The position numbers were made by a program, and so were the translations under genes. Below are positions 1 to 23,399 of a stretch of DNA of 50,596 nt, one piece after another. The notes below the pieces were generated by a model. That model ran no database searches. It was not told where the DNA came from and saw only the letters and a list, made by a program, of their open reading frames with translations. Origin of the DNA: a virus (taxonomy: Duplodnaviria > Caudoviricetes); IMG/VR virus record IMGVR_UViG_3300043499_000126, positions 1-50,596 of that record; one strand, given 5' to 3'. Positions within the stretch are counted from its first letter, which is position 1. Each line of letters opens with the position of its first letter.

Positions 1-235
1 CACCACCTCCTGCAGTAGGCTGTCCAGCAGTGGGATTGAAGGCATAGGCTTGGTCGAGGAAGTTCTGACCACCGCCTGAAGCAAAGTCTTGATAGAGCTT
101 GTTAGCTCCACCCCATGCCTCGTTGGCACGATTGTAAGCTTCACCAGACCTTTGCTGTTGTTCATTCTCGAACTGGGTCTGGTAGCCCTGATTCTGAGTA
201 AGCTGCTTATTGACTTCCTTTTTGTTACCACCCAT
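1..235 (-). CDS. N-terminal part of a Gly-rich virion/ejection protein, open at the window edge (MGGNKKEVNKQLTQNQGYQ...AGQPTAGGG)
   Basis: Read by hand: ATG at 235 overlaps the TGA of 235..627; no stop to base 1; ends in Gly codons matching the poly-Gly start of 49480..50596. Confidence 0.75.
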   Translation of the reverse strand, partial: MGGNKKEVNKQLTQNQGYQTQFENEQQQRSGEAYNRANEAWGGANKLYQDFASGGGQNFLDQAYAFNPTAGQPTAGGG

Positions 236-627
236 CACAGCTCCTTTACGAGCAACTCACCGGGCTTGTCTGCCTGGAAGAAACGAAAATGTTTCTGCAT
301 TATAAGTGCGAAGTCTGGGTCAGTAACAAAGGCATATATCTCTTGTATACCTGCTTGCTCCGTGCCGCGAAACCCCTCAAGGATCAACATCCTAAAGGCG
401 TTAACGCGCGCACGGAGCGGAGCAGACTTGTCGAGAAAGAGCATGGCCTCTGCGAACAACTTGACTTGACCATACCCTATAATCTTGCCGTCATTTTCAA
501 CAACGGCATCGACAATGGACGATCTTCTGTTGGGCAGACCGTAGAGATCTGAGTGATGGTCTTCCCAGATCTTACTGATTGCTGGAACGTCGTCCCAACG
601 AAAAGATCGTAACTCGAGTTTAGACAT
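235..627 (-). CDS. GNAT-fold acetyltransferase-like protein
   Basis: Pattern LRSFRWDDVPAI...VVENDGKIIGYG resembles a GNAT N-terminus; sits just before the ejection-like genes, as GNAT-like gp13 does in T7-like phages. Confidence 0.55.
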   Translation of the reverse strand: MSKLELRSFRWDDVPAISKIWEDHHSDLYGLPNRRSSIVDAVVENDGKIIGYGQVKLFAEAMLFLDKSAPLRARVNAFRMLILEGFRGTEQAGIQEIYAFVTDPDFALIMQKHFRFFQADKPGELLVKEL

Positions 628-2032
628 CGGATCTTAATCTAGCCTTCAGACGCTTTAGCTCTTCAGTCAGCTCACGCTGAACTGCCTGTACAATGTCCTT
701 TCGATCCACTTCTCGCTCTCGTTCAGCACTCATCGCGTCGATGTATATGTTGTCCGGATAGCGAGACTTGAACTGTGAATGTGCGCCACGGATCGTATTG
801 CCAGTGATCACCAGGTCTTTGATGATCCCTGCTGTGTTGTCACCGTGGTTGGCACCGCCGATGCGGATGCCATATGATCCGTAGTTCCACGTGCAATCGA
901 GGATATGCAAGATGTCACAGGAGTCTTTGTCTCCATACTCTAGAAACGACGACCCTTCGTGAGTAATCTCCATCCCTCGAAATACCACTGACTCTGGACC
1001 TTCAGTGATAAGACAGAAACGACCAGGACCACCCATTGCTGTCTTGTTCGTACGATAGTTACCACCACGCATCTCTGCCGTTGTGCGCGGCAGGGACGAT
1101 GCATTGTCTGCGGTGAAGTCGTGGCCGGTGATATTGACGATGGCCCCAACCTCGGACATGGTGCAGTTTTCGACCACCAGATTCCGGAGTGATCCACCGT
1201 TCTTTGGTGTGAACATGAACCCATAACCATCCTGACCACTAGCCCAGGAATTGGTCAAGGTGCATCGACGGATAGTCACGTTATGACCATCCTTCAGCTC
1301 AAGCAAGTTCTTGGTCGGGATGGAGCTGTTACCCTTCCATACAATGGGCTTGGTGAATACAGCGTCCTCGATCGTGATTCCTGTTGGACGGCAGTTCGGG
1401 ATTTTCATCTTGTCCCCGCCGACCATGATGTTCTCGCTAGCAGCCTCGAAATAGCCACCTGAAATGAGAACAGGACCAGGAGCATTCAGGATAGCAATTG
1501 CCTGACTATCCTGTTTGGCACTGGAGTAAACGTCACGAATGTCACAATCCTTGACTGTAACATTGGCTGCGTTGATCTCGATGCCTCGCTTCCCACGATG
1601 AGTCGCGACGCGCACTCCTTCGATCTTCACATCGTCAGGTGCCTGGTCAACAGTTGTTTGATTCGTATCATTTTTACCAACACGAATGACACTGTCGTAG
1701 TTCGATGCACCTTCCAATGCTTCAATCCCGATGTGGTCGATGCCAACAGATACACGTAGCGCGGGATTGCCACTACCAGTGATCTTGTTTCCACCCTGAC
1801 CCCGTAGTTTAGTGTCAGGAGTGTCGAAGCTGTAACTGCCCTCGCAGACAAGATTGGGAGCAAGTGCGACATTACCACCTGCTGTCAATGTTGCCTGCAC
1901 ATCACCACAGTTGTTGATGACGGTCTCATCTTCAGGACCAGGGTCAGGTGGTTCAGAGCCAAGCTCGTCACGAATCTTCTGCGTGAGAACGTCGATCTCA
2001 TCGCAGTAACCAAGAATCGTATCGGGATTCAT
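620..2032 (-). CDS. Right-handed parallel beta-helix protein (tailspike/depolymerase-like), ~470 aa
   Basis: Repeated beta-helix rungs (NVTVKDCDI, GITIEDAVF, NVTIRRCTL, NLVVENCTM, DLVITGNTI); start moved to ATG 2032, which overlaps the upstream TGA (ATGA). Confidence 0.75.
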   Translation of the reverse strand: MNPDTILGYCDEIDVLTQKIRDELGSEPPDPGPEDETVINNCGDVQATLTAGGNVALAPNLVCEGSYSFDTPDTKLRGQGGNKITGSGNPALRVSVGIDHIGIEALEGASNYDSVIRVGKNDTNQTTVDQAPDDVKIEGVRVATHRGKRGIEINAANVTVKDCDIRDVYSSAKQDSQAIAILNAPGPVLISGGYFEAASENIMVGGDKMKIPNCRPTGITIEDAVFTKPIVWKGNSSIPTKNLLELKDGHNVTIRRCTLTNSWASGQDGYGFMFTPKNGGSLRNLVVENCTMSEVGAIVNITGHDFTADNASSLPRTTAEMRGGNYRTNKTAMGGPGRFCLITEGPESVVFRGMEITHEGSSFLEYGDKDSCDILHILDCTWNYGSYGIRIGGANHGDNTAGIIKDLVITGNTIRGAHSQFKSRYPDNIYIDAMSAEREREVDRKDIVQAVQRELTEELKRLKARLRSDV

Positions 2033-2697
2033 TTCTGCCCCTCGGGACGATTGAGTAGCTTCTTGAGCAGCACCAGCGTGGCTGCTTCTGAGGGACCGCC
2101 TCCACCAGTCTGAGGAGGTGCTGTGGCGGTGCCCGGCTTGACCTCGACGTCGATGTCGCCCTTGCAGCGCAGCGAGGTCAAACTGTCCATGACGATCGGC
2201 AGATTGACTGGGCCATGTGCGTGGAGTGGCTGTGCCATCGCGGTTTTGAGCGACTCGATCTCCGTATGGAGAGGCTTTGTCGCCTCGTCGATCATCGCCT
2301 GGCATTCTTCCTTGGTCAGACCCTGAGCAGGAGGCTGAGTTCCACCACCAGATTCTCCGGGTGTGACGATGGGAGGTCCACCGAGATCACGCCATTCCCA
2401 CTCAAGCCGATGTGGGCTTCCTGCTGCCGCATCCTTCAGTGGTGAGAAGGGATGGGTGTAATAGCCCTTGTCGTCAGGAGTCGCCGTCGGGAGAAAGATC
2501 CTTCCTGCGATGCGACCGTCACTGCCGATCTGCTGCGTCATCGCATTGAATGGCATGTCCGCTGTTGGCTTGACATACTCCGCATACCCCGCTGGAATGC
2601 CACTCTCACCAAGGACAGTCTCGTAATCGTCGGCAGGCTGTCCCGGTGACTTCTTAATGGTGTCGAAAAACAACCGTGCGTATTCGTCGCTAGACAT
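2029..2697 (-). CDS. Hypothetical protein with Pro/Gly linkers and a short coiled coil
   Basis: 222-aa ORF overlapping both neighbours in the operon. Confidence 0.7.
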   Translation of the reverse strand: MSSDEYARLFFDTIKKSPGQPADDYETVLGESGIPAGYAEYVKPTADMPFNAMTQQIGSDGRIAGRIFLPTATPDDKGYYTHPFSPLKDAAAGSPHRLEWEWRDLGGPPIVTPGESGGGTQPPAQGLTKEECQAMIDEATKPLHTEIESLKTAMAQPLHAHGPVNLPIVMDSLTSLRCKGDIDVEVKPGTATAPPQTGGGGPSEAATLVLLKKLLNRPEGQK

Positions 2698-4033
2698 GAG
2701 CTTTACCCTTCAAAAGAATCGCTCTGAGATTTGCGACGGGATCACTTCTTGCCGTTATGACCTCGAAGTATGGATCGACAAACTTGGGAACGTCTTCGAA
2801 CCACCCGTCGTAGCTGTAGAGAACTAACATATCTGTATAGTTATGAATTACCTCCATAAGTGCCATCGCCTTGGACTCTGGCACTTCATACAGTCGTTGG
2901 ATTGCAATAAGCGTAAGATCGACTTCTTCCCACGCTCGGTGATCAAAAATGTCCAGTTCTAAATACTTGATGCCCTGTGCGCCACTGTCAATGACAGAAG
3001 GTTCGCAATCAATCCCGTAAAGAAACGTGCTAGGGTGCGCCCTTTGAACTGCTTTGAGAAGCTGCCCTGTGCCACAACCCAGGTCTAGAACCTTGCCCTT
3101 TATCTCAGGCAGGATAGAAACAATGAAGTCGTGTGCATTCTGCATGGACTCAAGTGAGTTAAATCCATTCCAATGTTTATTAAATTTAAGTGGTATAACA
3201 TTGGAGAATGGAAACTGATTGCCACTTGCGCCATATCTAGGATAGTCGTTACTATGTAGATTGAGTATAACTTTGTGTGCAAGTGCATCACTTGCGTAAG
3301 TTGTCTTTAGAACCGGAGTGACCACCATCGCAATGCCATGTAATGACGTCCACTGCATTGGCATGGACAATAAATCTCTCAACCAATTCATCTCCCTATT
3401 TAACTTATTCTTGTCCATTAATTCTAGAATCTCTTGCCCTCGTTTGACACTGGGTCTGCAGTCTACAGAACAAGGAAGGTGGAAAACTCCCCTGATCCCA
3501 ACGTGGCGGAGTAGCACGTTGTTGTAGACTGCATTCTTTTGATCCTTAGACTCAAAGGTTAGGGCTGTGTAGTCTCTCCACCCCGACTCCTTCCAATGCT
3601 TTTGAAAAGCCCTAACACAACAGTCAGGAAAGTCAAGCATGTGACCAATAGTGATATCGTCTTGAGCGCGCCACGCATCTAGAAACCTCTCTGGTTCTAA
3701 ACCAAAGTAAACTCGATAGGTGAATTGCTTACCAGATTCATATGGGATACTAGCATTCCCATAAGCTCCCTGGGCCGCACCATCAACACCTACGATAGCC
3801 ATTTGGACGTTATGTTTAAGTGCCCAGACCTGTAAGTCTGGTAGGTCTAAAGGATTAACACTTTGTAATATTCCAGGTCGCAACCCATCAATTAGTGTAA
3901 GTAACTCAACACCTTTCCATAGATTTGAGAGGGCATGTATCTTTCCTTGCCAGTACTCTCGTGCAGCTTCTGATGTCCAGACAACACGAAGGAAATCTGG
4001 AACTATAAAATCTAGTCTTTCGACTTTGCCCAC
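2690..4033 (-). CDS. Two-domain protein: N-terminal Cys/His-motif domain (DUF483-like) plus C-terminal class I SAM-dependent methyltransferase
   Basis: GHMLDFPDCC and FHLPCSVDC motifs; SAM-binding motif I KVLDLGCGTG followed by LYGID. Confidence 0.75.
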   Translation of the reverse strand: MGKVERLDFIVPDFLRVVWTSEAAREYWQGKIHALSNLWKGVELLTLIDGLRPGILQSVNPLDLPDLQVWALKHNVQMAIVGVDGAAQGAYGNASIPYESGKQFTYRVYFGLEPERFLDAWRAQDDITIGHMLDFPDCCVRAFQKHWKESGWRDYTALTFESKDQKNAVYNNVLLRHVGIRGVFHLPCSVDCRPSVKRGQEILELMDKNKLNREMNWLRDLLSMPMQWTSLHGIAMVVTPVLKTTYASDALAHKVILNLHSNDYPRYGASGNQFPFSNVIPLKFNKHWNGFNSLESMQNAHDFIVSILPEIKGKVLDLGCGTGQLLKAVQRAHPSTFLYGIDCEPSVIDSGAQGIKYLELDIFDHRAWEEVDLTLIAIQRLYEVPESKAMALMEVIHNYTDMLVLYSYDGWFEDVPKFVDPYFEVITARSDPVANLRAILLKGKAHV

Positions 4034-5187
4034 TGTGGACGCTCCGTTAGAACTGTAGCTGGAATACCATAATCGGTATGATCACCATGATGATCTCCAT
4101 GAGGAATATCACCATGCCCGCTGTTCACTGGGTGAACGGCTGAAAGGAGATTAGCAATCTTTGTCCGCTTAGCACATTCACTTAAGAGCTGAGGTTGATC
4201 CCTCTCTATTGTTTCAAAGAGCGAGTACCAGAGTCTGCAGTTGACTGTTCTGTTTCTCCAATCTCCATCAATAGCAGTTCCGGGGCAATGACCCTTACAG
4301 AAAGCGAAGTATCGGCAATCCTTGCAGCCCCCGACCTCTTGAGGAGTGTGATAAAGAGCAATGTATCTCTCAAGTCCTGATACGTCAGCCTTGACCCAGT
4401 TGACCCCGTCCTTATTAGTTCGACCACAATTAGACATCTGTCCACTGGGTGAAACTCCTTGCACTGCAGCAGTCGTCTGTGGATCGCAATGATTCCATAC
4501 ACACGTTACACTTGGCTCGTACTGTGTGAGAAGTTTCTTGATATCAGCAAACGGGAGAACGCTCAGTTTAGAAGTCTTTGACCATTCATAGAGTTCTAAG
4601 TAGGTTTCGATTTGTCGTTCTTCCGAGAGCGCAAGCCCATCTCGGCCGCAATCGATCTCCATCTCATGGAGATTAAGATGCCTAATCCCAAGAGAGCTAA
4701 GAGTATCAAACCACTTGCAAAGGCGAGGAAGGTCATTGTTACCCCGATGGATCGTACAGATGATCGAAGGGATGATCCCTAAGTTACAGAGCTTCTTGAT
4801 TGCAATCTCTGTTTGGAGTGTCAGCTCGTCTGAGCAGCGCACACTATTCATATCACCTGGACCATCTATCGAGATACCTACGCCTACTTTGTATTTAGCG
4901 AACAACTCAATATGTTCGTCGGTGATAAGTGACCCGTTGGTTTGGATTCCATTACTTCCAAATCTTTCAAGTCCCCAAGCCCACACCTCCTCGAGATGTT
5001 TGATAGGAGCAAGGAGCGGTTCTCCTCCAAAGACAGCAAAGTTTTGACCAAGTCTATCAAGTTGTTTCTGTGCTTTAGACCAATCTCTTGGGACATTGAT
5101 ATTACCTGCTTCCCTCATTGGGTCTTGATAGCAGTATCCACACTTGATGTTACACGCAATTCCGACAGGTAGATATTCTACGCTCAT
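4012..5187 (-). CDS. Radical SAM/SPASM-domain enzyme (peptide-maturase-like) with an HxD-repeat tail
   Basis: CNIKCGYC (CxxxCxxC), FGGEPLL, IQTNGSL, ISIDGP; SPASM-type cysteines CVWNHC...CGR...CKDCRYFAFCKGHC...C. Confidence 0.93.
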   Translation of the reverse strand: MSVEYLPVGIACNIKCGYCYQDPMREAGNINVPRDWSKAQKQLDRLGQNFAVFGGEPLLAPIKHLEEVWAWGLERFGSNGIQTNGSLITDEHIELFAKYKVGVGISIDGPGDMNSVRCSDELTLQTEIAIKKLCNLGIIPSIICTIHRGNNDLPRLCKWFDTLSSLGIRHLNLHEMEIDCGRDGLALSEERQIETYLELYEWSKTSKLSVLPFADIKKLLTQYEPSVTCVWNHCDPQTTAAVQGVSPSGQMSNCGRTNKDGVNWVKADVSGLERYIALYHTPQEVGGCKDCRYFAFCKGHCPGTAIDGDWRNRTVNCRLWYSLFETIERDQPQLLSECAKRTKIANLLSAVHPVNSGHGDIPHGDHHGDHTDYGIPATVLTERPQWAKSKD

Positions 5188-6005
5188 GGTCCGATCAATA
5201 CTGGATTATCAACATGAGGAAGATCCCCATGTACTGCATCATTATGGTCTACGTGTGGTTGATCACCATGAGGGACATCCCCATGCCCACCTTCTGGAAC
5301 GTCTGTATGTGGTGTATCTGAGTAATGGTCCTGATGTACTGTATCGTGATGCGGTGTATCATTATGGAAATCTTGATGATTAGCATCATCATGGGTATCA
5401 CAATGGAATTGATTACCGTCATAATGGTTATCGGTATGATCGCCATGACCTGTAGGTATAGAATTTGAGTAATAATAGCAATCATCATGAACCTTATTAA
5501 GAGCTGAACCACTATCCCCATGCGAATCACCATGACCTAGATCATCATGTGCGTCGATAAAGCTATCACCATGTGGTGAATCTGAATAGAGATCATTATG
5601 AATCACATCATTATGTGGTCCAGGAGGTGCATCTACGTGAACAGATTGATCTGTATGATCAACATGAGCCGCAACTCCACCTGTATCTGTATGAACTACA
5701 TCTTCATGTGCACGATATGACCACGAACCACCCGCTTGAACCCAGTGTAAAGTTGTAAATTCAGCCCAGAGTGATCCTTGCAAAGCCTGAGCATCACCAT
5801 GCATCAGAGGGCCAACGACTTTGTATTCCCTATCTGCCGTCTGATTGATGTAATGAAGATCAGGCCCCTCAACCCAGAGGGAACCTGCGATAGCTCCTAC
5901 AATGCCACCGACGAGAATACCATTCCAAGCCCGCTCATTTCCGTCTGAGCCGACGTAGCGGAGAGTATCTCCCTCAATCCAGAGTGAGCCTGCGAGCTTT
6001 GGCAT
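5184..6005 (-). CDS. His-X-Asp repeat protein (putative radical SAM substrate, probably tail-associated)
   Basis: About 29 HxD triplets; N-terminal ~99 aa with three GSLWxE repeats; TAATG and ATGA overlaps couple it to the tail gene upstream and the rSAM gene downstream. Confidence 0.85.
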   Translation of the reverse strand: MPKLAGSLWIEGDTLRYVGSDGNERAWNGILVGGIVGAIAGSLWVEGPDLHYINQTADREYKVVGPLMHGDAQALQGSLWAEFTTLHWVQAGGSWSYRAHEDVVHTDTGGVAAHVDHTDQSVHVDAPPGPHNDVIHNDLYSDSPHGDSFIDAHDDLGHGDSHGDSGSALNKVHDDCYYYSNSIPTGHGDHTDNHYDGNQFHCDTHDDANHQDFHNDTPHHDTVHQDHYSDTPHTDVPEGGHGDVPHGDQPHVDHNDAVHGDLPHVDNPVLIGP

Positions 6006-6607
6006 TACGGAACTGCCCAGTAATCAACACCAACTGGAATGATGAGACGATTCATGATGTGCAGGGTCATATCACCACGCATGACCATACCACCAATTGT
6101 CGCTGCTCGATTAGAAACATTGATACAAAAATCACCCTTACCCGTTCCAGCTTGGACAAAAAGACCGAAACTCTGATTCGCTGCGGGATTACCTGCGATA
6201 TGAACTCCATAAATTCCAGGCGTAGGATTAGCTGCAATATTGGTCATGTATGCAGTTCCGGTCTGGTTGAATGTCCCGTTTGAAGTTACGTTAAGAAGTG
6301 TCCCTCCTGTAATAGCAACAGCATTGGCATTCTGGACTGCCATTGTGCCAAGACCAAAGTTGATACGCGCGCCTGCTGCATTGGCAGATCCTGACCCACC
6401 GCCATCTACAGATAGGACTTGATCGACAAAGGCCGCACCGTCCCATTCCTGGAATTTCACAGGGGCGCGCACCAGCTTTATTGATCCAGTCGGAGGACCA
6501 GTAAGTGGGATCTTTTGCAGAGTAATTGCGTCAATATCCCGATTCTTTGCCTCGTCGACAAAGAGGACGTAATTACTGGTTATTGTCGGTTTTGACCAAT
6601 CCGCCAT
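6005..6607 (-). CDS. Tail fibre-like protein
   Basis: Fibre-type segment GGGSGSANAAGARINFGLGTMAVQNANAVAITGG; located in the tail module. Confidence 0.65.
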   Translation of the reverse strand: MADWSKPTITSNYVLFVDEAKNRDIDAITLQKIPLTGPPTGSIKLVRAPVKFQEWDGAAFVDQVLSVDGGGSGSANAAGARINFGLGTMAVQNANAVAITGGTLLNVTSNGTFNQTGTAYMTNIAANPTPGIYGVHIAGNPAANQSFGLFVQAGTGKGDFCINVSNRAATIGGMVMRGDMTLHIMNRLIIPVGVDYWAVP

Positions 6608-16178: not shown

Positions 16179-18663
16179 TTGCTACACCTCTAGGAGCTGG
16201 AATGTTTTCAGTATCTTTCGCTTTCGGTGGCGACCCTTGTTGTGGACCTTGACCTTGCTGTGGCGCACCGCCCTGCATCATCATCTGCTTCATCATCTCT
16301 TGCTGTTCCATTTCGATATGATTATGCAGGTGAGCGACTACGTTCATGTAGCCACCAGGATTGGTCATCTTCTGATCCATCCCGATTTCAGACACGCACC
16401 ATTCCTTGATAACTGCTATGTGAACCGAATGCTCATCAACGTCCATTTCAACAGGTATCGTTGATTCAAGGATTGGTGTGCCGTCCATGGGGTTGATACC
16501 CACAGGCTGCGGCTGACCTTGCAGTAGCTCGTAAATCTCATATAGCTGCTTACTTCTGTCTGCATCACCCGGCACTGTCAGTTCTGTGATACCAACAAGC
16601 TCAGCGACTGTGTGTCGGTTCTCAGGATGGAAAAGAGCCTCATTGAGTGCCTCATTGTTCAGTTCAAGCAGACGCATGATGATGTCACGCTTCTGTGCCC
16701 AAGCAAGAGGAAACTGCTCGCTGAGTTCTGGCTCGACCTGTCCAACCTCACCATTCATCTCTGCTTTGCGAATCCACACATTCACAAAGGAATTCTTGCC
16801 TTGCTGCTTGACAATCTTCTCGTCCGTCTTCATGTTTTTGGCATAGCCCTTTACGGCTTTGCTTTCCAAGTCCGTCCAGAAGAACGAGATCATCTTATAG
16901 ATTATCTGGAGTCTTTGCAAACCCTGAGCACGACTCATGCTGTATTCGGAGGCTGTGTCTGAGCCTCCTTGCATTGATCCTCCATACACGGACGGTACAG
17001 TTCCAAGTACAAACTGACCAGCAGTTTGTAGATCATCGTGGAACTCTTTGTGCTCTCTGGAGAGAAGAGCTGCCTTATTGGTATAAAAAGCCGCTCCAAT
17101 ATTCCCACCGACGGGTGCTTTGACAGGATATAGAGACCCAGGACTAACCTCCATCGATCTGTATTTCTGCAGATCAATGACAGAAGAATCCACGAATGTC
17201 TCTGGTATTCCGTGTCGGATTGTTTCGACAGTAAGCTGGAATACTTCATTGGTCATCTCTTGAATAGGAACGATAGGATTAGCATAAGGCTGTCCATGAA
17301 CGCGATCGAGAATAGGATCAACCGAGACGGTCCAATATTCGTCCATGTCTTCATCATTGACCTCTGCTAAGATGTCATTGATGTAGATTGCTCGTAGTCC
17401 GTTTGGAAACTGCTCTTTGAGAGCCAGAACGCGCTCGTCGTCCATCTTTCCAATCTTATTGAACATCCAGGGGCGGAGCCAAACCTGACGACAGGTGCAA
17501 ACTTCTTCGTCGGAGTCTGAGCCGACATTGCTTGGCGTGCGCGCCCATCGATCGTATCGTTCACTATCAGCAGTAGCAACGATTTTATCTGCAATATGAG
17601 GAAACTTCTCCTGCATTTCAGCAACATCGTGTTCGTCATTCAGAATGAGATAGCCAGACTGTTGGAGCGTCCTAGCCCGTGGCATGATCTGGACGTTGGT
17701 TGCGCCGTAAAGCTCAACGATCTGACGAGACTTCGGAACTGTCTCTTCCCAGTCAAGTTCCTGGGTAGGCTCTTCCTCTGTCTCAATCATCGGAGCTACG
17801 TTCGATCCACAGTTAGGACAAAGCTCTGCATTAGGTGGAGGAGGCTCCATCATTCCAACCAGAGGTTCAACAGGTTCCTCAGGAGGAGGAATCATCGCTT
17901 CGTCTGGGATGCCTTCCAATCCGAAAGCTTCCTCCTCCATCGCGTTCTCTACAGGGAGTGGCGCTGCTGGAGCTTCACTGTGAGGATTGGCATTGTTTTC
18001 GATGGAGGTCTCAGCTCCTTCTGGAACAGGCATCTCTTCGAGAGGCGGTAAGCTGTTCATCGGTTGAACAGCTAGATCCTCTCCACACTCTGGGCACAGT
18101 CTCAGCTCATTCTTAATCACACCTTCACGGAAATGCTGAACTGTCTCTGTACCGTACTTGGAATTCTGGTCGTTGAACGTGTATGCAGCTATGATCCCTT
18201 GGTTATATAAGAGACCAATAGCTTTCATGAAAAGAAAAGGAGCTTTGTTATGCTTCCTTATTAATTCAGCGAGGCGCGTGTAAGCCTGAGCAGTGTAAAT
18301 GTCGCTAGCTTGATCGGCGTCGGAGGGATAAAAACGAGTTGCCGGTATTGCCTGAGAGATTGCAGATATGATAACTTCACCGTGGGCTTTGTAGATGTTG
18401 ACGATTTTGTTTTCGATGTCTGCTTCTTCGGCGTAGTCATAGTCCTCATCATAGTTCTCCGAGATGAATCTCCAGTCATGCGCGACTTCAGAGAAGTAGA
18501 TACCTTGCATCCCTTCCCAGAAGAACTCGTTCCGCTTGTAGACTTTCATCATGCGGTCGCGCGCGAACTGGTCCCTCGAATCTATCTGGAGAATGATAGA
18601 GTCCAGAGCTTGCTTAAGCTCGGCCGAGAGGATTTCGTCTTCCGGGTCGACGTTATTCGTCAT
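16168..18663 (-). CDS. Portal protein with an inserted zinc-ribbon/Pro-Glu segment
   Basis: 831 aa upstream of scaffold and capsid; portal-like N-terminal helix; Gln/Met/Pro-rich C-terminal tail; CPECG...CPNCG insertion. Confidence 0.75.
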   Translation of the reverse strand: MTNNVDPEDEILSAELKQALDSIILQIDSRDQFARDRMMKVYKRNEFFWEGMQGIYFSEVAHDWRFISENYDEDYDYAEEADIENKIVNIYKAHGEVIISAISQAIPATRFYPSDADQASDIYTAQAYTRLAELIRKHNKAPFLFMKAIGLLYNQGIIAAYTFNDQNSKYGTETVQHFREGVIKNELRLCPECGEDLAVQPMNSLPPLEEMPVPEGAETSIENNANPHSEAPAAPLPVENAMEEEAFGLEGIPDEAMIPPPEEPVEPLVGMMEPPPPNAELCPNCGSNVAPMIETEEEPTQELDWEETVPKSRQIVELYGATNVQIMPRARTLQQSGYLILNDEHDVAEMQEKFPHIADKIVATADSERYDRWARTPSNVGSDSDEEVCTCRQVWLRPWMFNKIGKMDDERVLALKEQFPNGLRAIYINDILAEVNDEDMDEYWTVSVDPILDRVHGQPYANPIVPIQEMTNEVFQLTVETIRHGIPETFVDSSVIDLQKYRSMEVSPGSLYPVKAPVGGNIGAAFYTNKAALLSREHKEFHDDLQTAGQFVLGTVPSVYGGSMQGGSDTASEYSMSRAQGLQRLQIIYKMISFFWTDLESKAVKGYAKNMKTDEKIVKQQGKNSFVNVWIRKAEMNGEVGQVEPELSEQFPLAWAQKRDIIMRLLELNNEALNEALFHPENRHTVAELVGITELTVPGDADRSKQLYEIYELLQGQPQPVGINPMDGTPILESTIPVEMDVDEHSVHIAVIKEWCVSEIGMDQKMTNPGGYMNVVAHLHNHIEMEQQEMMKQMMMQGGAPQQGQGPQQGSPPKAKDTENIPAPRGVANVP

Positions 18664-21600
18664 TTATTTAACCAGAACTTCATCATGTCTTTTCGAAGAT
18701 TCGCCATGCGAGTATTTGCAAGGGTATCAAGATGCCCCTGCTTGCTACGATCTAGACCTGCATGGATCTCCTGCATGATTGGGATTTGATTTTGATTCAT
18801 CTTAAAAATCGTTTGCTCAAGAGCAGAGCTAATGTCACCTTCAGTTAATTGAGGCAACTTGCCCTTCTTATAGAGCTTGATCATGTCATTGTAGACCTGA
18901 TCGTAGAATCCTGGACCACCTTGTGGATTGTAGTCCTCGTGGAGTTTGTTACCCTGGTAGCTCTTGAATGCACGACCTCTATCAATCTCGACGATACCAT
19001 TTGGGGTTCGGAGGAATTGCGCCCCGTGAGCATCCATGTTTCCTGTGAGCCAATCAACAGGGTGATTTCTGATTATGTCCCGAAGCTCCTCTGAAGTGAG
19101 CGTTGTGAGATCAACCTCCTTGAGCGTCGGCCAATTCATGTTGTTTCCAACAGCGGCCTGCATCGTCCCAGGCTTACCACCCATTTCCATCTTCTCTATC
19201 TTGATAGGATGTAGACCCGAGAGGTTAGCGATCTTGTTTGCAGATACCTCTTGGTCTGCAAAGTAAGGAGGATTAGCTTCTTTGAAAAGATAGTCTTGAC
19301 CACCCTTGGTATAAATTGACTTGCTCTTTGTTCCACCAAGTAGATCTTCAGCATCAGGAACCTTGATCTTGTAAGTATTATCGACAGCAGGAGCCGCGCT
19401 TTTAATATTAGTAGGACCTTGAATCAAATCCTCGATAGGCTTAACTTTAGGACTACCTGATATCCAGCCGCCATTCGGCTGTTGCTTCATGTATTGCGTA
19501 ACGAACGGATATGATGAAGCGTCTGCTTGAAAGAATGCGAGCTGTAACTTAGCAAAATCAGAAGGGTCTAAACCGACCTTTTCAGCCTTCTTCACAAGCT
19601 CATCTGCAACTTGCTGAGGTGTATACTTACTCGATCCCTGAAGAAGCCCACCAATCATGTCGTGATTGAAAAGTTCCGTAGCAAGCTCAATATCTTCCGG
19701 ATCAAATCCTTCCTTCTGTAGAATGTCCCGCATGATAGGAACAGTATGTGAATGCTGCATGGTCTTATCGCCAGCAGCTATAGCTTGAGGTTTCCCGATA
19801 TCATGCAGCGGAAGCGCGACATTCATTAAGGCTTCTACATCTATCCCAGACCGCTGGGAGATATCTTGAAATTCCTGTGGAGTTAGCTGAGTCTTCCACT
19901 GCTTGAGCACATCCTTTGTATGGGATTCGATGCTGCCCATTTCTGTCCCACTGTGCTTACCAAAGTTCTCTGCAACCTCTGGGTAGGTATTCTTTAGATA
20001 ATCTAGACTACCTTCAGCATCGAGAACTCCAATGGATTCTTTGCCCATTGGATTAAGAGGAGAAGGCTCTGGAATAGGCTCAGTACCAAATAGTTTGTCA
20101 AGCTCAGCAATATCTTGATCATACTTGCTCGGTATTGGAGCCTTACCGAGTTTACCCGCTTTCTTTGCATCAAAGGCTGCAATTTTATCTAAAGCTACAG
20201 GAGGTAACTTCATCCCCTGTGCTTGCATTTCACGGAGTTGCTTTACCGACTTTTGTAACCATGCAGCATCACTGCCCGCAGTCTTTGCAAGCTTTTTAGC
20301 ACCTTTACTTGGAGCTTTCCCGCCCATTGATTCAATGGGTGACTGGACAGGTTCAAGTTTACCTATCTGACTCATGTCTTGAGTAGCAGCTTCTATGCCA
20401 CCCTGATCAACAAAGTCATCCCACTCAGGGCCAGACCCGCGTGTAGATAGTATATCTTCTGCAGTAGGTTTCTTGACAAGATTAGGTGTTGCTGTAGGAG
20501 CTGGTCTCGTAGCACCTTTCATCAATGCGTCGAAATTTACTCCAGCGACATCTAGATTTTCACCCTGTACTGCTGACGGAAATTCAGTCTCCCCTGCCAT
20601 GTACATCGGATCATGAGGAGCAGAATCTAGAAATTGTCTCTGTGGATGGCTGTTTATGAAGGCATCTGCTTCAGCCTGCGAGTCGAAAGTCCCAAAGGAC
20701 TTCCCACTTCCAGGATCAAACACATCTACCTTCTCTACAACTGGCTCAACATCATCTATAAAGTTTGTAAGTGCTGGACCGGGAGCAAGTTCAGTCCCAT
20801 CGTCAATAGCTGTCTTCTTCATCTCCCAGAGTTCTTTGATCTCCTCGGCCGCTCCAGGATTACCTGACTGATTCGCCCAATCGACCGCAGCCATATGCAA
20901 GTCATGGGGCGATAGGTCTGGATGGATGGCAGCATTAAAGAATTCGTCTAGATTGTTACCCCACGCTGGTGGAATACCATACTGCTCCCAGATACTCTTT
21001 AAGTCAGTTGCGTGCTGCTGCATCACCCGATGAGTCTGTGGTTGATATAGAGCAGCCTCTGGATTCTTAGGTGCCGAAACAGGCTCATTAGCCTTTACAA
21101 TATTTTGAAAAAGATCATACTCGTTCGTAAAGAAGTCTTGAAAGTCTTCCTTTCCTCCAGGAGACATCTTGTTATATGCTTCTATAATTTCATCATATGT
21201 CCCACCGTTCTTGAGATTGGCAGCAAACGTGCCAGCAGATGGAGGTGTAGTAGCACCAAAGCTAGCCCAATGAGAACTAGCAGGTTGGCCTGCAACCTCG
21301 GGTGCAGAGAATATGATAGGCTTAATCTTCTCGTACAAATCCGGGTAGTTCTGAGAAAATTCTACCTGCTCAGAGCCAAGTAGCATCCCCCAAGAACCTT
21401 GGATATTCTCAGGGTTATCACCTTTTTGAGCTGCATTAAGCATGTCGCCTATGTAGCTATTTGATGGCTCTGGGATAACAGCGGTCGGGGCCTCGACAGG
21501 AAGTCGACCACTCTCGTATTGCTTAATAGCAGCAAGTTTCTTCGTCTGAACTTTATCAAGAGGTCGGCCAGCAGCTTCAAGCTCCTTGAGAGTCCCCTGT

Positions 21601-23399
21601 TCGTATGTCGAAATGGGCTGACCACCATAGGTCGGTCCTTCAGCAGGATAGACCTTAGGCTTCTTCGGTTTGATCTTCGGAGGATTGAGGTTTTCTTCAG
21701 CCCACTTCAGCGCCTGAGCCTCTTGAGAAGTCGGTGGAGGCTGAACTACAGGTAGTCCAGGAGCCTGTCCTGGGAGTGGTGCTGACACCCCACCTGGAGC
21801 GTCTGAAGGTATAATTCCCTTGAAGTATGACGAACCATAATCTCCCTTGGGCGTGCCAGCCGGGGCAAGTCCCATCGTCTGCCAGGGAGTCTTTTTAGGA
21901 TCTAGGGTAGAGCCTACTGGAGCAGTTAGAGTTTGTCTTGGATCAAACGCTATCGACCCTTGTTTACCATAACCATTACCAGCCACATAGTCAGTATAGT
22001 GAATCGCACCATACTCCATTGGCATACTTGGATGATTAAGTGCGGATGTTCCTGTCTTCCCAGGCACACCACCGATACCATGCACTGTGCCTACGTATCC
22101 CACATCACTATGACTAGGATAGCTCAATAGGGAATTGAGATCTTCAATAGCCTTTTTCGCTACCGGGTCTGCCTCCAGAGTCTTATAGTGTGCTGCGAGA
22201 ACTGCGGGTTTGATCTTGCCTGACCTGACATCTGCATGTGGTACTGCCTCAGCATAAGGACGCTGAGCTTCCCATGCATGTTCGATGTCCTGTATGTATT
22301 TCTTATCTTTAACTGGATCAAGCCTAGAAAGAATTACATCGATATCTTCACGAGGCACAGGTGCCATTCGGACATCTAGAACTTTTGTAGTCTCTGGGAA
22401 GTCTAGGGGTAATTGATTACCATAAGAATAGCTCTGATTGGACTGTCCTGTTGGAGCTTTACCTGACGCACGAGCTGCCTTGGCCTGAGCAGGTGTGTAA
22501 TAACCTGCATGACCCATGCGCTCTATCACATCCTCACCAGAATGTGTGCCGAAACCAGTCTTAAGAATTTTCTCAGCATCACTATCGTAATTTAGCTGAT
22601 GTGTGAAACCCTCAACACCACGGACTTTCTTCCAAAGGTTAGGAGGTAACCAACCTCCCATCACACCATGAGCAACGTCAGCACCTGCACCAAGGACAGC
22701 GCCAGCAGGAATTAATCCAAGTGCATCGACAGATCCTAGAGCTAATTGAATCTGGGCATCAAGTATCTTACTTCCTGTCGAGCCCGTGCGTTTGAGAGTT
22801 TCCTGTCCTAGATCGCTGGCGTGGAACGCTCCCTTTTCGTAGCCTGACTTGACGCCCTTGAGACCTTCCCAGGCCACATCGGACATAGGCTTCTTCTCAG
22901 AGCCTGTGTTTCTTGGATCAATAACGTCCAGGTATGCACCACCCGCTCGACCTATACTCTCAGTAGATGCACCAAGGACTCCTGAGGCTTTACCGAGTTT
23001 ATCTCTTGTAGACTGAGGAAGGGATTCGTAACCTGTCTTGATATCTTCACCAAGAACGCTCGCGACATCACCGACATCTTGAGTTCCCCTGAACTCATTA
23101 CGAAGATGTTCGGTGTAGTCACCAACGTTCTTTGCAATCTTTTGACCTGCTGATCTGAGCTTGCCTCCAACTGCCTGTCCAATTTTCTCAGGAGTAGGAA
23201 TAGAGAAAGGCTCCTTAACAGGTGGCGTTACAGGAAGATTAACATCACCACCAGGAGGCTCGAAAGGGTCCATGCCACCACGGAGACGCTCAAATCTAGT
23301 CGGAGGACGAGGCGTATTCCACCAGTCACGCACCCCACCGAGCGCGCGTATGGCACGAGTATATAGACCGCCGTCGTCGTAATCTTCAGAACTAGCCAT
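18660..23399 (-). CDS. Large polyvalent protein with an ART-like region, an HD phosphohydrolase domain and a HipA/PI3K-like kinase domain
   Basis: HD: SHTKDV...LPLHDIGKP...H...NHD...AD; kinase-like: YLFKE...QEVSA...DWLTGNMDAH...IDRGRAF; ART-like: THQ...AEKILKTGF...GYYT...AFDPRQ. Confidence 0.7.
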   Translation of the reverse strand: MASSEDYDDGGLYTRAIRALGGVRDWWNTPRPPTRFERLRGGMDPFEPPGGDVNLPVTPPVKEPFSIPTPEKIGQAVGGKLRSAGQKIAKNVGDYTEHLRNEFRGTQDVGDVASVLGEDIKTGYESLPQSTRDKLGKASGVLGASTESIGRAGGAYLDVIDPRNTGSEKKPMSDVAWEGLKGVKSGYEKGAFHASDLGQETLKRTGSTGSKILDAQIQLALGSVDALGLIPAGAVLGAGADVAHGVMGGWLPPNLWKKVRGVEGFTHQLNYDSDAEKILKTGFGTHSGEDVIERMGHAGYYTPAQAKAARASGKAPTGQSNQSYSYGNQLPLDFPETTKVLDVRMAPVPREDIDVILSRLDPVKDKKYIQDIEHAWEAQRPYAEAVPHADVRSGKIKPAVLAAHYKTLEADPVAKKAIEDLNSLLSYPSHSDVGYVGTVHGIGGVPGKTGTSALNHPSMPMEYGAIHYTDYVAGNGYGKQGSIAFDPRQTLTAPVGSTLDPKKTPWQTMGLAPAGTPKGDYGSSYFKGIIPSDAPGGVSAPLPGQAPGLPVVQPPPTSQEAQALKWAEENLNPPKIKPKKPKVYPAEGPTYGGQPISTYEQGTLKELEAAGRPLDKVQTKKLAAIKQYESGRLPVEAPTAVIPEPSNSYIGDMLNAAQKGDNPENIQGSWGMLLGSEQVEFSQNYPDLYEKIKPIIFSAPEVAGQPASSHWASFGATTPPSAGTFAANLKNGGTYDEIIEAYNKMSPGGKEDFQDFFTNEYDLFQNIVKANEPVSAPKNPEAALYQPQTHRVMQQHATDLKSIWEQYGIPPAWGNNLDEFFNAAIHPDLSPHDLHMAAVDWANQSGNPGAAEEIKELWEMKKTAIDDGTELAPGPALTNFIDDVEPVVEKVDVFDPGSGKSFGTFDSQAEADAFINSHPQRQFLDSAPHDPMYMAGETEFPSAVQGENLDVAGVNFDALMKGATRPAPTATPNLVKKPTAEDILSTRGSGPEWDDFVDQGGIEAATQDMSQIGKLEPVQSPIESMGGKAPSKGAKKLAKTAGSDAAWLQKSVKQLREMQAQGMKLPPVALDKIAAFDAKKAGKLGKAPIPSKYDQDIAELDKLFGTEPIPEPSPLNPMGKESIGVLDAEGSLDYLKNTYPEVAENFGKHSGTEMGSIESHTKDVLKQWKTQLTPQEFQDISQRSGIDVEALMNVALPLHDIGKPQAIAAGDKTMQHSHTVPIMRDILQKEGFDPEDIELATELFNHDMIGGLLQGSSKYTPQQVADELVKKAEKVGLDPSDFAKLQLAFFQADASSYPFVTQYMKQQPNGGWISGSPKVKPIEDLIQGPTNIKSAAPAVDNTYKIKVPDAEDLLGGTKSKSIYTKGGQDYLFKEANPPYFADQEVSANKIANLSGLHPIKIEKMEMGGKPGTMQAAVGNNMNWPTLKEVDLTTLTSEELRDIIRNHPVDWLTGNMDAHGAQFLRTPNGIVEIDRGRAFKSYQGNKLHEDYNPQGGPGFYDQVYNDMIKLYKKGKLPQLTEGDISSALEQTIFKMNQNQIPIMQEIHAGLDRSKQGHLDTLANTRMANLRKDMMKFWLNK

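Follow-up and report, generated by a model that had tools for sequence, protein, structure and literature searches.

An aromatic-x-Asp array in a phage tail-fibre module as a candidate substrate of a co-encoded radical SAM/SPASM enzyme and its DUF483 partner

The window analysed here, a 50,596-bp stretch of DNA, is the complete virus record IMGVR_UViG_3300043499_000126 of IMG/VR (Duplodnaviria; Caudoviricetes). Its minus strand encodes a 273-residue protein whose last 174 residues form a dense array of aromatic-x-Asp triplets, followed by a radical S-adenosylmethionine (SAM) enzyme with a SPASM domain and by a DUF483-like protein fused to a methyltransferase. Conservation of the triplet register and of this gene order indicated that the array is probably a substrate of the enzyme. 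With less confidence, and by analogy with characterised enzymes, it is proposed that the radical SAM-DUF483 pair may modify each triplet, most likely by forming a triceptide-like ring between the aromatic residue and the beta carbon (C-beta) of Asp or Asn. The genes and domains of the cassette are:

5184..6005, minus strand: gene of the aromatic-x-Asp repeat protein, 273 aa (open reading frame (ORF) list and homologues)
5709..6005, minus strand: N-terminal all-beta domain of the repeat protein, residues 1-99, with three 'GSLWxEGxxLxY'-type repeats
5184..5708, minus strand: aromatic-x-Asp array, residues 100-273 and stop codon, with 28 HxD, 2 YSD and 1 FID, at a spacing of mostly 4-5
5187..5207, minus strand: conserved C-terminal 'NPVLIGP' strand, residues 267-273 (shared xPxxIGP/VGP ending and a strand in the AlphaFold2 model)
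4012..5187, minus strand: radical SAM/SPASM enzyme, 391 aa (PF04055, E 6.8e-13), its ATG overlapping the TGA of the repeat gene
4072..4116, minus strand: C-terminal mini-array of the enzyme, HGD358, HGD363, HGD367 and HTD370 (from the sequence)
3179..4033, minus strand: DUF483-like domain (PF04467), residues 1-285 of the 447-aa product of the third gene, with a GTG start 22 nt inside the radical SAM gene
2690..3178, minus strand: class I SAM methyltransferase domain of the same protein, residues about 286-447 (Pfam methyltransferase families, Foldseek and VIA)

The triplet register of the window protein

A previous reading of the letters alone, referred to below as the sequence-only reading, had counted 28 HxD triplets in the last 174 residues, with the forms HED, HTD, HVD, HND, HGD, HDD, HYD, HCD, HQD and HHD; count and forms were both reproduced. 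Almost all of the array His residues (28 of 30) open an HxD, the exceptions being H220, which is the middle residue (X2) of an HHD, and H227, which immediately precedes a YSD. All 34 Asp residues of the array are in register, 31 as the third residue of an aromatic-x-Asp triplet and three as X2 of HDD. When the array was shuffled 20,000 times, the mean number of HxD triplets was 5.8 (standard deviation 2.0) with a maximum of 14, and no shuffle reached 28. His-to-Asp pairs numbered 28 at offset +2, as compared with 0-12 at other offsets, and residues 1-99 of the protein contain one HxD only. Tandem Repeats Finder (positions 5100-6100, minimum score 30) returned no rows, in agreement with the absence of exact tandem DNA repeats that had already been noticed. 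Because of the shuffles, the offset counts and this null result, the pattern is considered to be maintained at the protein level and not to be a remnant of recent DNA duplication.

Three triplets open with an aromatic residue other than His (YSD at residues 140 and 228, FID at 149), as the sequence-only reading had also stated. Within the window array, D or N is found at i+2 for five of the nine Tyr, Phe and Trp residues, a proportion that on its own is weak evidence for an aromatic rule; with the comparison of relatives below, the evidence becomes strong.

Conservation of the register among relatives

A word search identified 19 relatives of the repeat protein, while a profile search against 1.84 billion representatives yielded 725 at E<=1e-3, of which 387 reached E<=1e-10 and 62 reached E<=1e-30. 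Homologues from Thermus phages span 95-97% of the window protein. Nearly every tail His in the first 22 members is part of an Hx[D/N] motif (for example 53/53 in phiMa), and no shuffle came close. In an alignment of 22 sequences (A3), identity to the window protein was 78% at the aromatic position and 85% at Asp, but only 16% at X2 and 25% in the spacers; Asn was the commonest substitute for Asp, and motifs were usually spaced by 4-5 residues.

A family-wide test of the register covered the 148 of 162 relatives that have a recognisable tail. D or N was present at i+2 for 3818 of 3954 tail His residues (97%). For those D or N residues that lack a His at i-2, Tyr, Phe or Trp occupied that position in 642 of 1810 cases (35.5%), a 4.9-fold enrichment over the background of 7.3%. 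At offsets -1, -3 and -4 from such residues their share was 4-6%, so that enrichment was limited to i-2. Phe was enriched 5.9-fold and Trp 4.5-fold in register, even though neither is a single-step neighbour of the His codons; these two values were calculated for a set that also took in two radical SAM tails (L010_6001 and L010_7732; seven D/N, no aromatic), both of which the 148-relative set excludes. Behind the same N-terminal domain, some arrays consist chiefly of Tyr motifs (P0247, P0260, P0235) or of Phe motifs (P0220), and others are rich in Trp (P0227, P0243, P0200, P0016). The refuting pattern named by the sequence-only reading, homologues that keep the His/Asp richness and lose the i,i+2 spacing, was looked for in the 22 members and the 148 relatives, and the claim was not refuted. 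These sequence comparisons support the earlier claim that selection acts on an aromatic-X-Asp motif.

The same comparisons bear on an alternative in which the array is a metal-binding element that carries no covalent modification, for example a metal-zippered fibre segment in which His and Asp of several chains coordinate ions, comparable to the HxH motifs of the T4 long-tail-fibre tip, and in which the radical SAM pair acts elsewhere. Both residues commonly serve as metal ligands, and with i,i+2 spacing they would lie on one face of a strand. Such a role does not account well for the replacement of His by Phe or Trp in register, for whole arrays of Tyr, Phe or Trp motifs, or for the replacement of Asp mainly by Asn. 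Of all the evidence, these non-His arrays weigh most heavily against a pure metal sponge, because Phe has no atom that could ligate a metal.

Linkage of array, radical SAM and DUF483 genes

The genes of the cassette overlap by TAATG (fibre-like gene and repeat gene), ATGA (repeat gene and radical SAM gene) and 22 nt (radical SAM and DUF483 genes). By these overlaps, the repeat gene is translationally coupled to the radical SAM and DUF483-methyltransferase genes. Searches that started from the enzyme found an Hx[D/N]-rich ORF directly upstream in 8/8 viral loci (one truncated by the contig end), with DUF483 downstream. Searches from the repeat protein gave four loci, two of them new, and both new loci contained the radical SAM and DUF483 genes; with the window repeat protein alone, a locus search returned only one near-identical contig. 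Among 50,697 deposited phage records the enzyme was present in three, those of the Thermus phages phiMa, Cumys and phiLo. phiMa and Cumys carry the same trio, located after baseplate and tail-collar genes. The Hx[D/N] triplets of phiLo (L106, MH673673, 2512-8368) number 58, 104 and 75 in three successive proteins, which are 675, 782 and 474 aa long, respectively; the genes of these proteins follow directly after a baseplate wedge gene, at 4-9 kb from the enzyme pair, and are convergent with the radical SAM and DUF483-like genes.

Two loci have arrays with Tyr or Trp motifs near the enzyme gene. On the Tyr side, a YDD array lies approximately 2 kb upstream of the radical SAM gene in the bacterial locus L032. 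On the Trp side, metagenome contig L096 has a collagen-like fibre gene followed by a Trp/His-x-D/N array protein, then by a second array, of 62 aa, and finally by the start of the same enzyme. Scans of viral sequences with the Tyr-type proteins P0260 and P0247, and of metagenomes with P0260, returned nothing on the genomic context of Tyr-type arrays; L096, of Trp type, was the only locus recovered.

A DUF483 homologue was encoded directly downstream of the radical SAM gene in all 32 loci examined for this feature (L001-L032). The 22 bacterial loci, from many phyla and each with an enzyme orthologue of >=40% identity, all have this arrangement, and in five of them (L016, L017, L019, L023, L029) the radical SAM and DUF483 parts form one ORF of 591-888 aa. 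Because of this natural fusion, the two proteins are likely to work as a unit. Arrays were found near the pair in 15/22 bacterial loci, either as short peptides with a signal like that of the twin-arginine translocation (Tat) system or as C-termini of large proteins.

The presence of the radical SAM-DUF483 pair with the array in every phage locus examined, and the translational coupling of the repeat gene to the radical SAM gene, also argue against a purely metal-binding array. Because of the conserved register and the invariable radical SAM/SPASM neighbour, a role as enzyme substrate is favoured over that of a generic metal sponge. To this extent the sequence-only reading, which had preferred a cyclophane substrate to a sponge, was partly supported; the cyclophane, like any covalent change, is a hypothesis.

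Several features of individual loci were noted besides. In phiLo, an IS605-type transposase gene adjoins the radical SAM gene, and phiLo_136 is the array protein with 104 motifs. In L032 (1-2964), the array belongs to a 988-aa bacterial protein and consists of YDD five times, HND and YTD, with no HxD. Bacterial arrays in L014, L018, L021 and L031 are short proteins with twin-arginine-like signals, e.g. ..RRTLIAAGWTVPVV.., which are probably exported after modification and, by analogy, may be functional cousins of the periplasmic defence effector HxsA.

The radical SAM/SPASM enzyme

Both the radical SAM core motif CxxxCxxC and the cysteine motif of a SPASM domain are present in the enzyme. The latter has the pattern C234-x9-G-x9-C254, C288-x2-C291-x5-C297-x3-C301, C317, and C12/C16/C19, C229, C234, C254, C288, C291, C297, C301 and C317 are invariant in 13 sequences. 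At E<=1e-10 the enzyme has 2045 relatives. Its best NCBIfam matches are the peptide and protein maturases AmcB, TIGR04083, DynA, anSME, YhhB and PapB, all far below cut-off. Cut-offs of cyclophane synthases in particular were missed by a wide margin: AmcB 69.9 bits against 425, YhhB 56.5 against 445, GrrM/OscB 40.1 against 310, XyeB 35 against 450 and FxsB 30.6 against 370. The nearest sequences in the PDB are anSME 4k36 (E 1e-10), ChlB 9gm3 and SkfB. PADLOC reported only generic viperin-core similarity for the enzyme.

For Cumys and phiMa, it has been suggested that the radical SAM-DUF483 pair modifies phage DNA (bioRxiv 10.1101/2024.08.14.607894, excerpt), in which case the repeat protein would be unrelated to it. 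Homologues near deazapurine DNA-modification genes in some cyanobacteria, described in the same excerpt, fit this suggestion, as does the cyanobacterial locus L011, where the pair is present and the flanks examined contain no array. The affinity of the enzyme with SPASM peptide and protein maturases, the position of the module within fibre and spike genes and the coupling of the array gene to the module in every phage locus all speak for a different target, and the excerpt does not mention the repeats. Modification of DNA by the pair is thus considered very improbable.

The mini-array at the C-terminus of the enzyme is a common feature: at least two HxD follow the SPASM domain in 110/120 closest enzyme homologues and in 11/13 aligned sequences, and locus L010 has two tandem radical SAM genes with 19 and 9 Hx[D/N]. 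This tail may be a cis substrate, a placeholder or a metal handle.

The DUF483-methyltransferase partner

The N-terminal part of the partner protein passed the cut-off of PF04467 (32.5 bits against 25, residues 120-204), and its AlphaFold2 model has a predicted local distance difference test score (pLDDT) of 88. Residues C138, C139, C192 and H232 are near-invariant, and 9/21 aligned partners match PF04467 at E<=1e-3. A profile of the domain gave weak NUMM/zf-CHCC matches only among PDB sequences (E 0.03-0.06), which hint at most at a zinc knuckle. A protein-atlas search with the DUF483 domain gave no usable match, and Foldseek and VIA, applied to the two-domain model, returned methyltransferases only, covering residues 277-445, and none on the DUF483 part.

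The C-terminal domain scored above the cut-offs of Methyltransf_25 (27.2 bits against 27) and MTS (25.3 against 23) and contains the SAM motif 'DLGCGTG'. Its structural match to PhzM had a Z-score of 17.0 and a root-mean-square deviation (rmsd) of 2.8 over 162 aligned residues. This domain occurs in 11/21 aligned partners and, by its distribution, is an optional accessory. A predicted complex of radical SAM residues 1-345, DUF483 residues 1-285, array residues 227-273 and three 4Fe-4S clusters scored 0.00 against a mark of 0.32 and counts neither way.

Predicted fold and tail-fibre setting of the repeat protein

An AlphaFold2 model of the repeat protein was built from the 22-sequence alignment. 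The N-terminal domain (residues 1-99) was predicted with eleven strands and block pLDDT values of 77-98; its residues G6, G41 and W44 are invariant in A3. In the monomer, pLDDT was below 50 over residues 103-191 and most of 204-255, and the array is thus predicted to be disordered. A strand was predicted at residues 269-272, the last two pLDDT blocks being 72 and 89, and the xPxxIGP/VGP ending is common to most homologues. According to this model the array would be a long loop with both ends fixed, its C-terminal strand presumably packing onto the N-terminal domain. Because it is predicted to be disordered as a monomer, the array would be accessible to the enzyme.

The best structural match of the repeat protein was a weak one, to the three-fold beta-prism of the lectin-like bacteriocin LLPA (3m7h; Z 4.0, rmsd 3.7, 85 aligned residues). 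A Z-score of 4.0 was judged too weak to name the N-terminal domain after this fold. A Pfam glycine-zipper match (17.3 bits, cut-off 24.2) was dropped as sub-threshold. The only two Cys residues of the protein, 176 and 202, flank a non-repeat island (..HDDCYYYSN.. and ..FHCDTHDD..), and neither is in register; this pair may form a disulfide or serve as a second site of cross-linking. Comparable Cys pairs occur in several relatives (P0003, P0004, P0007, P0019) and are absent from the Thermus phages.

Directly upstream of the repeat gene lies a further gene of the cassette:

6005..6607, minus strand: fibre-like protein, 200 aa (PHROG tail fiber, E 1.8e-5 and 4e-4), its stop codon overlapping the start of the repeat gene (TAATG)

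The cassette as a whole is flanked by fibre-like genes, with PHROG tail fiber and host-specificity matches, and by a beta-helix protein gene. The 200-aa protein ends in the motif '..LIIPVGVDYWAVP'. In other loci, too, the upstream gene ends with this motif, and in P0005, P0011 and P0013 motif and repeat protein are joined in a single chain, the motif coming first. Two other relatives of the repeat protein carry a Laminin_G_3 lectin-like domain. Because of the fusions and the neighbouring genes, the repeat protein was placed in the tail-fibre module, and it was concluded from this sequence evidence that it belongs to the fibre apparatus.

The fibre setting is also compatible with a metal-binding array, as is an unstructured monomer, since the array might fold only with metal or with other chains. 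Metal-handling proteins, moreover, often bear a short HxD tail like that of the enzyme. Weighed together with the aromatic substitutions and the gene linkage described above, metal binding with no covalent modification is regarded as improbable.

A proposed modification of the array

In the mechanism that we propose, the array would be a multi-site substrate on a protein of the phage tail-fibre module. During infection, each aromatic-x-Asp/Asn triplet would be recognised by the co-translated radical SAM/SPASM enzyme and its obligate DUF483 partner. The enzyme would take a hydrogen from C-beta of Asp or Asn, and this carbon would then be bonded to the aromatic ring at i-2 (at C2 in the case of His, by analogy), to give approximately 31 three-residue rings per chain. 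Anchored at both ends by the small beta domain, the array could thereby turn into a beaded loop on the fibre, stiff and resistant to proteases and heat; the fused methyltransferase might add an optional further modification. Asn, the main substitute for Asp, retains C-beta. Rings between His C2 and C-beta have been described on HAA, HNR and HTK motifs, by enzymes that also take Phe and Trp (PMC11499958, excerpt), and PapB makes cross-links at Asp (PMC9413430, excerpt).

A different radical chemistry on the same substrate is a serious rival, because work on the HXS system gave +8 Da (+C/-4H type), and not the -2 Da that each ring would entail, for HxsA, the only radical SAM-matured His-x-Ser repeat protein studied (PMC13128918, excerpt). 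The pair could then form a His N-to-C-beta link, insert one carbon (+8 Da, HxsA-like), functionalise the beta position of Asp or decarboxylate it, epimerise residues, or carry out a methylation that is finished by the fused methyltransferase. The linkage and register evidence serves these options as well as it serves a carbon-carbon ring between the aromatic residue and C-beta, the enzyme fits no curated family, and the presence of a partner that is obligate yet unexplained, beside a methyltransferase that is optional, suggests that the reaction takes more than a single step. Single-residue chemistry, however, needs no strict i,i+2 pairing of an aromatic residue with a C-beta, and the interchangeability of His, Tyr, Phe and Trp in this pairing points to a ring requirement; a His N-link would not tolerate Phe. 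Overall, a chemistry other than the aromatic-to-C-beta ring is considered rather unlikely.

Several points weigh against the aromatic-to-C-beta ring or against the array as substrate. The modification is hypothetical, being proposed from sequence and gene context. The sequence leaves the reaction of the enzyme unassigned, and the enzyme is about equally near to anSME as to the best cyclophane model. Outside His the aromatic rule is loose: in the tails of the 148 relatives, only 33-45% of Tyr, Phe and Trp residues have D or N at i+2. The HxD tail of the enzyme is just as well explained by metal handling, and the Cumys preprint places the pair, in some cyanobacteria, beside the deazapurine genes mentioned above. 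In addition, at 7/22 bacterial loci (L011, L025-L030; two short contigs) there was no array in the flanks examined.

Relation to known systems

By its sequence features the system falls within a general definition of triceptide-like systems, namely a SPASM enzyme and aromatic-X-X3 motifs. As in the triceptide systems HaaB/HAA, YhhB/HNR and HtkB/HTK, a radical SAM/SPASM gene adjoins that of a substrate with repeated aromatic-X-X3 motifs, any aromatic residue may stand at position 1, a substrate has several motifs, and the enzyme has no N-terminal recognition domain before its CxxxCxxC (PMC11499958, excerpt). In contrast to them, the window system has Asp or Asn as X3, an obligate DUF483 partner and a phage fibre setting. 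Its approximately 31 motifs are carried by a protein of 273 aa that includes a folded domain of about 100 residues, and not by a short leader-core peptide; relatives are fused to fibre or lectin-like domains, whereas bacterial versions are short Tat-signal peptides. The window enzyme, finally, lies far under all curated cyclophane-synthase cut-offs, and the bond is here only proposed.

The HXS antiphage system resembles the cassette in that radical SAM enzymes and a small partner that is not a radical SAM protein mature an entire protein with His-x-small-residue repeats; HxsA has five His-x-Ser repeats, and the radical SAM enzymes HxsB and HxsC act with HxsD, HxsC and HxsD forming a complex (PMC13128918, excerpt). 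Bacterial HxD versions, with their Tat-like export signals, share the expected location of a periplasmic effector. The cassette differs in having one radical SAM enzyme instead of two, DUF483 instead of HxsD, a phage-borne array, and acidic HxD in place of basic HxS repeats. Because the repeats are acidic, electrostatic DNA binding is unlikely for the HxD array. In profile searches of the genome, HxsA (TIGR03979) had no match at E<=10, HxsB (TIGR03978) reached 24 bits against a cut-off of 370, on the radical SAM core only, and HxsC (TIGR03977) and HxsD (TIGR03976) had no match; the cassette contains no second radical SAM ORF.

The tip of the T4 long tail fibre, formed by gp37, is a trimeric needle in which HxH motifs hold metal ions. 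It shares with the window protein the spaced His-x-ligand motifs in a phage fibre protein, and differs from it in having HxH instead of HxD; Phe, Tyr and Trp substitutes and a constant radical SAM enzyme are particular to the arrays described here. Among maturases, anSME (4k36) is the solved protein nearest in sequence to the window enzyme, and the models of PapB and QhpD match it weakly, below cut-off. Both anSME and QhpD act on whole proteins, QhpD making Cys-to-Asp/Glu thioethers. PapB forms Cys/Asp cross-links (PMC9413430, excerpt), whereas the window array has no Cys in register.

Literature searches found no HxD arrays with a radical SAM enzyme, in phages or elsewhere, beyond the Cumys preprint, although a 2022 JACS triceptide survey that lay outside the search could list one. 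It is conceivable, and is put forward here with some reserve, that the fibre protein carries dozens of radical SAM-made aromatic-Asp macrocycles. These would be the first macrocyclisation of a viral structural protein of the type known from RiPPs (peptides that are ribosomally synthesised and then modified post-translationally); both the His/Tyr/Phe/Trp-x-Asp/Asn ring type and the obligate partner fold (DUF483) would be new, and the same machinery would act on Tat-exported peptides in bacteria of many phyla.

If the array is cross-linked in this way, radical SAM peptide chemistry would extend beyond small secreted peptides to the hardening or functionalising of virion proteins, with approximately 30 to >100 rings per chain (104 motifs in phiLo_136). 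Cyclophane chemistry would gain an Asp/Asn ring type and DUF483 a role, and long protein loops could be made rigid by a genetically encoded route. The family is large, with 725 representative clusters of the repeat protein and the 2045 enzyme relatives. Because three cultured Thermus phages carry the cassette, the system is tractable, virion mass spectrometry and knock-outs being ordinary experiments.

Other features of the window

Further genes of the window are:

620-2305, minus strand: beta-helix ORF (PF13229), tailspike-like, 561 aa as listed, overlapping the preceding 222-aa gene by 277 nt
235-627, minus strand: conserved 130-aa protein after the beta-helix gene, present in L005, L007 and L095, with no Pfam match
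18660-23399, minus strand: very large ORF, 1579 aa
16168-18663, minus strand: very large ORF, 831 aa
45267-48239, minus strand: very large ORF, 990 aa
39152-40420, plus strand: ParB-N domain fused to an N6/N4 DNA methylase

The true start of the beta-helix protein is probably near 2030, because relatives start at an internal 'MNP.TI.GYCDEI' Met (469 aa in L004). At the thresholds applied, neither PHROG nor Pfam matched any of the three very large ORFs. Little has been described of this phage lineage: the terminase is <=34% identical to that of any deposited phage. As the ParB-N/DNA methylase gene indicates, the phage also has ordinary DNA-modification genes, located away from the cassette.

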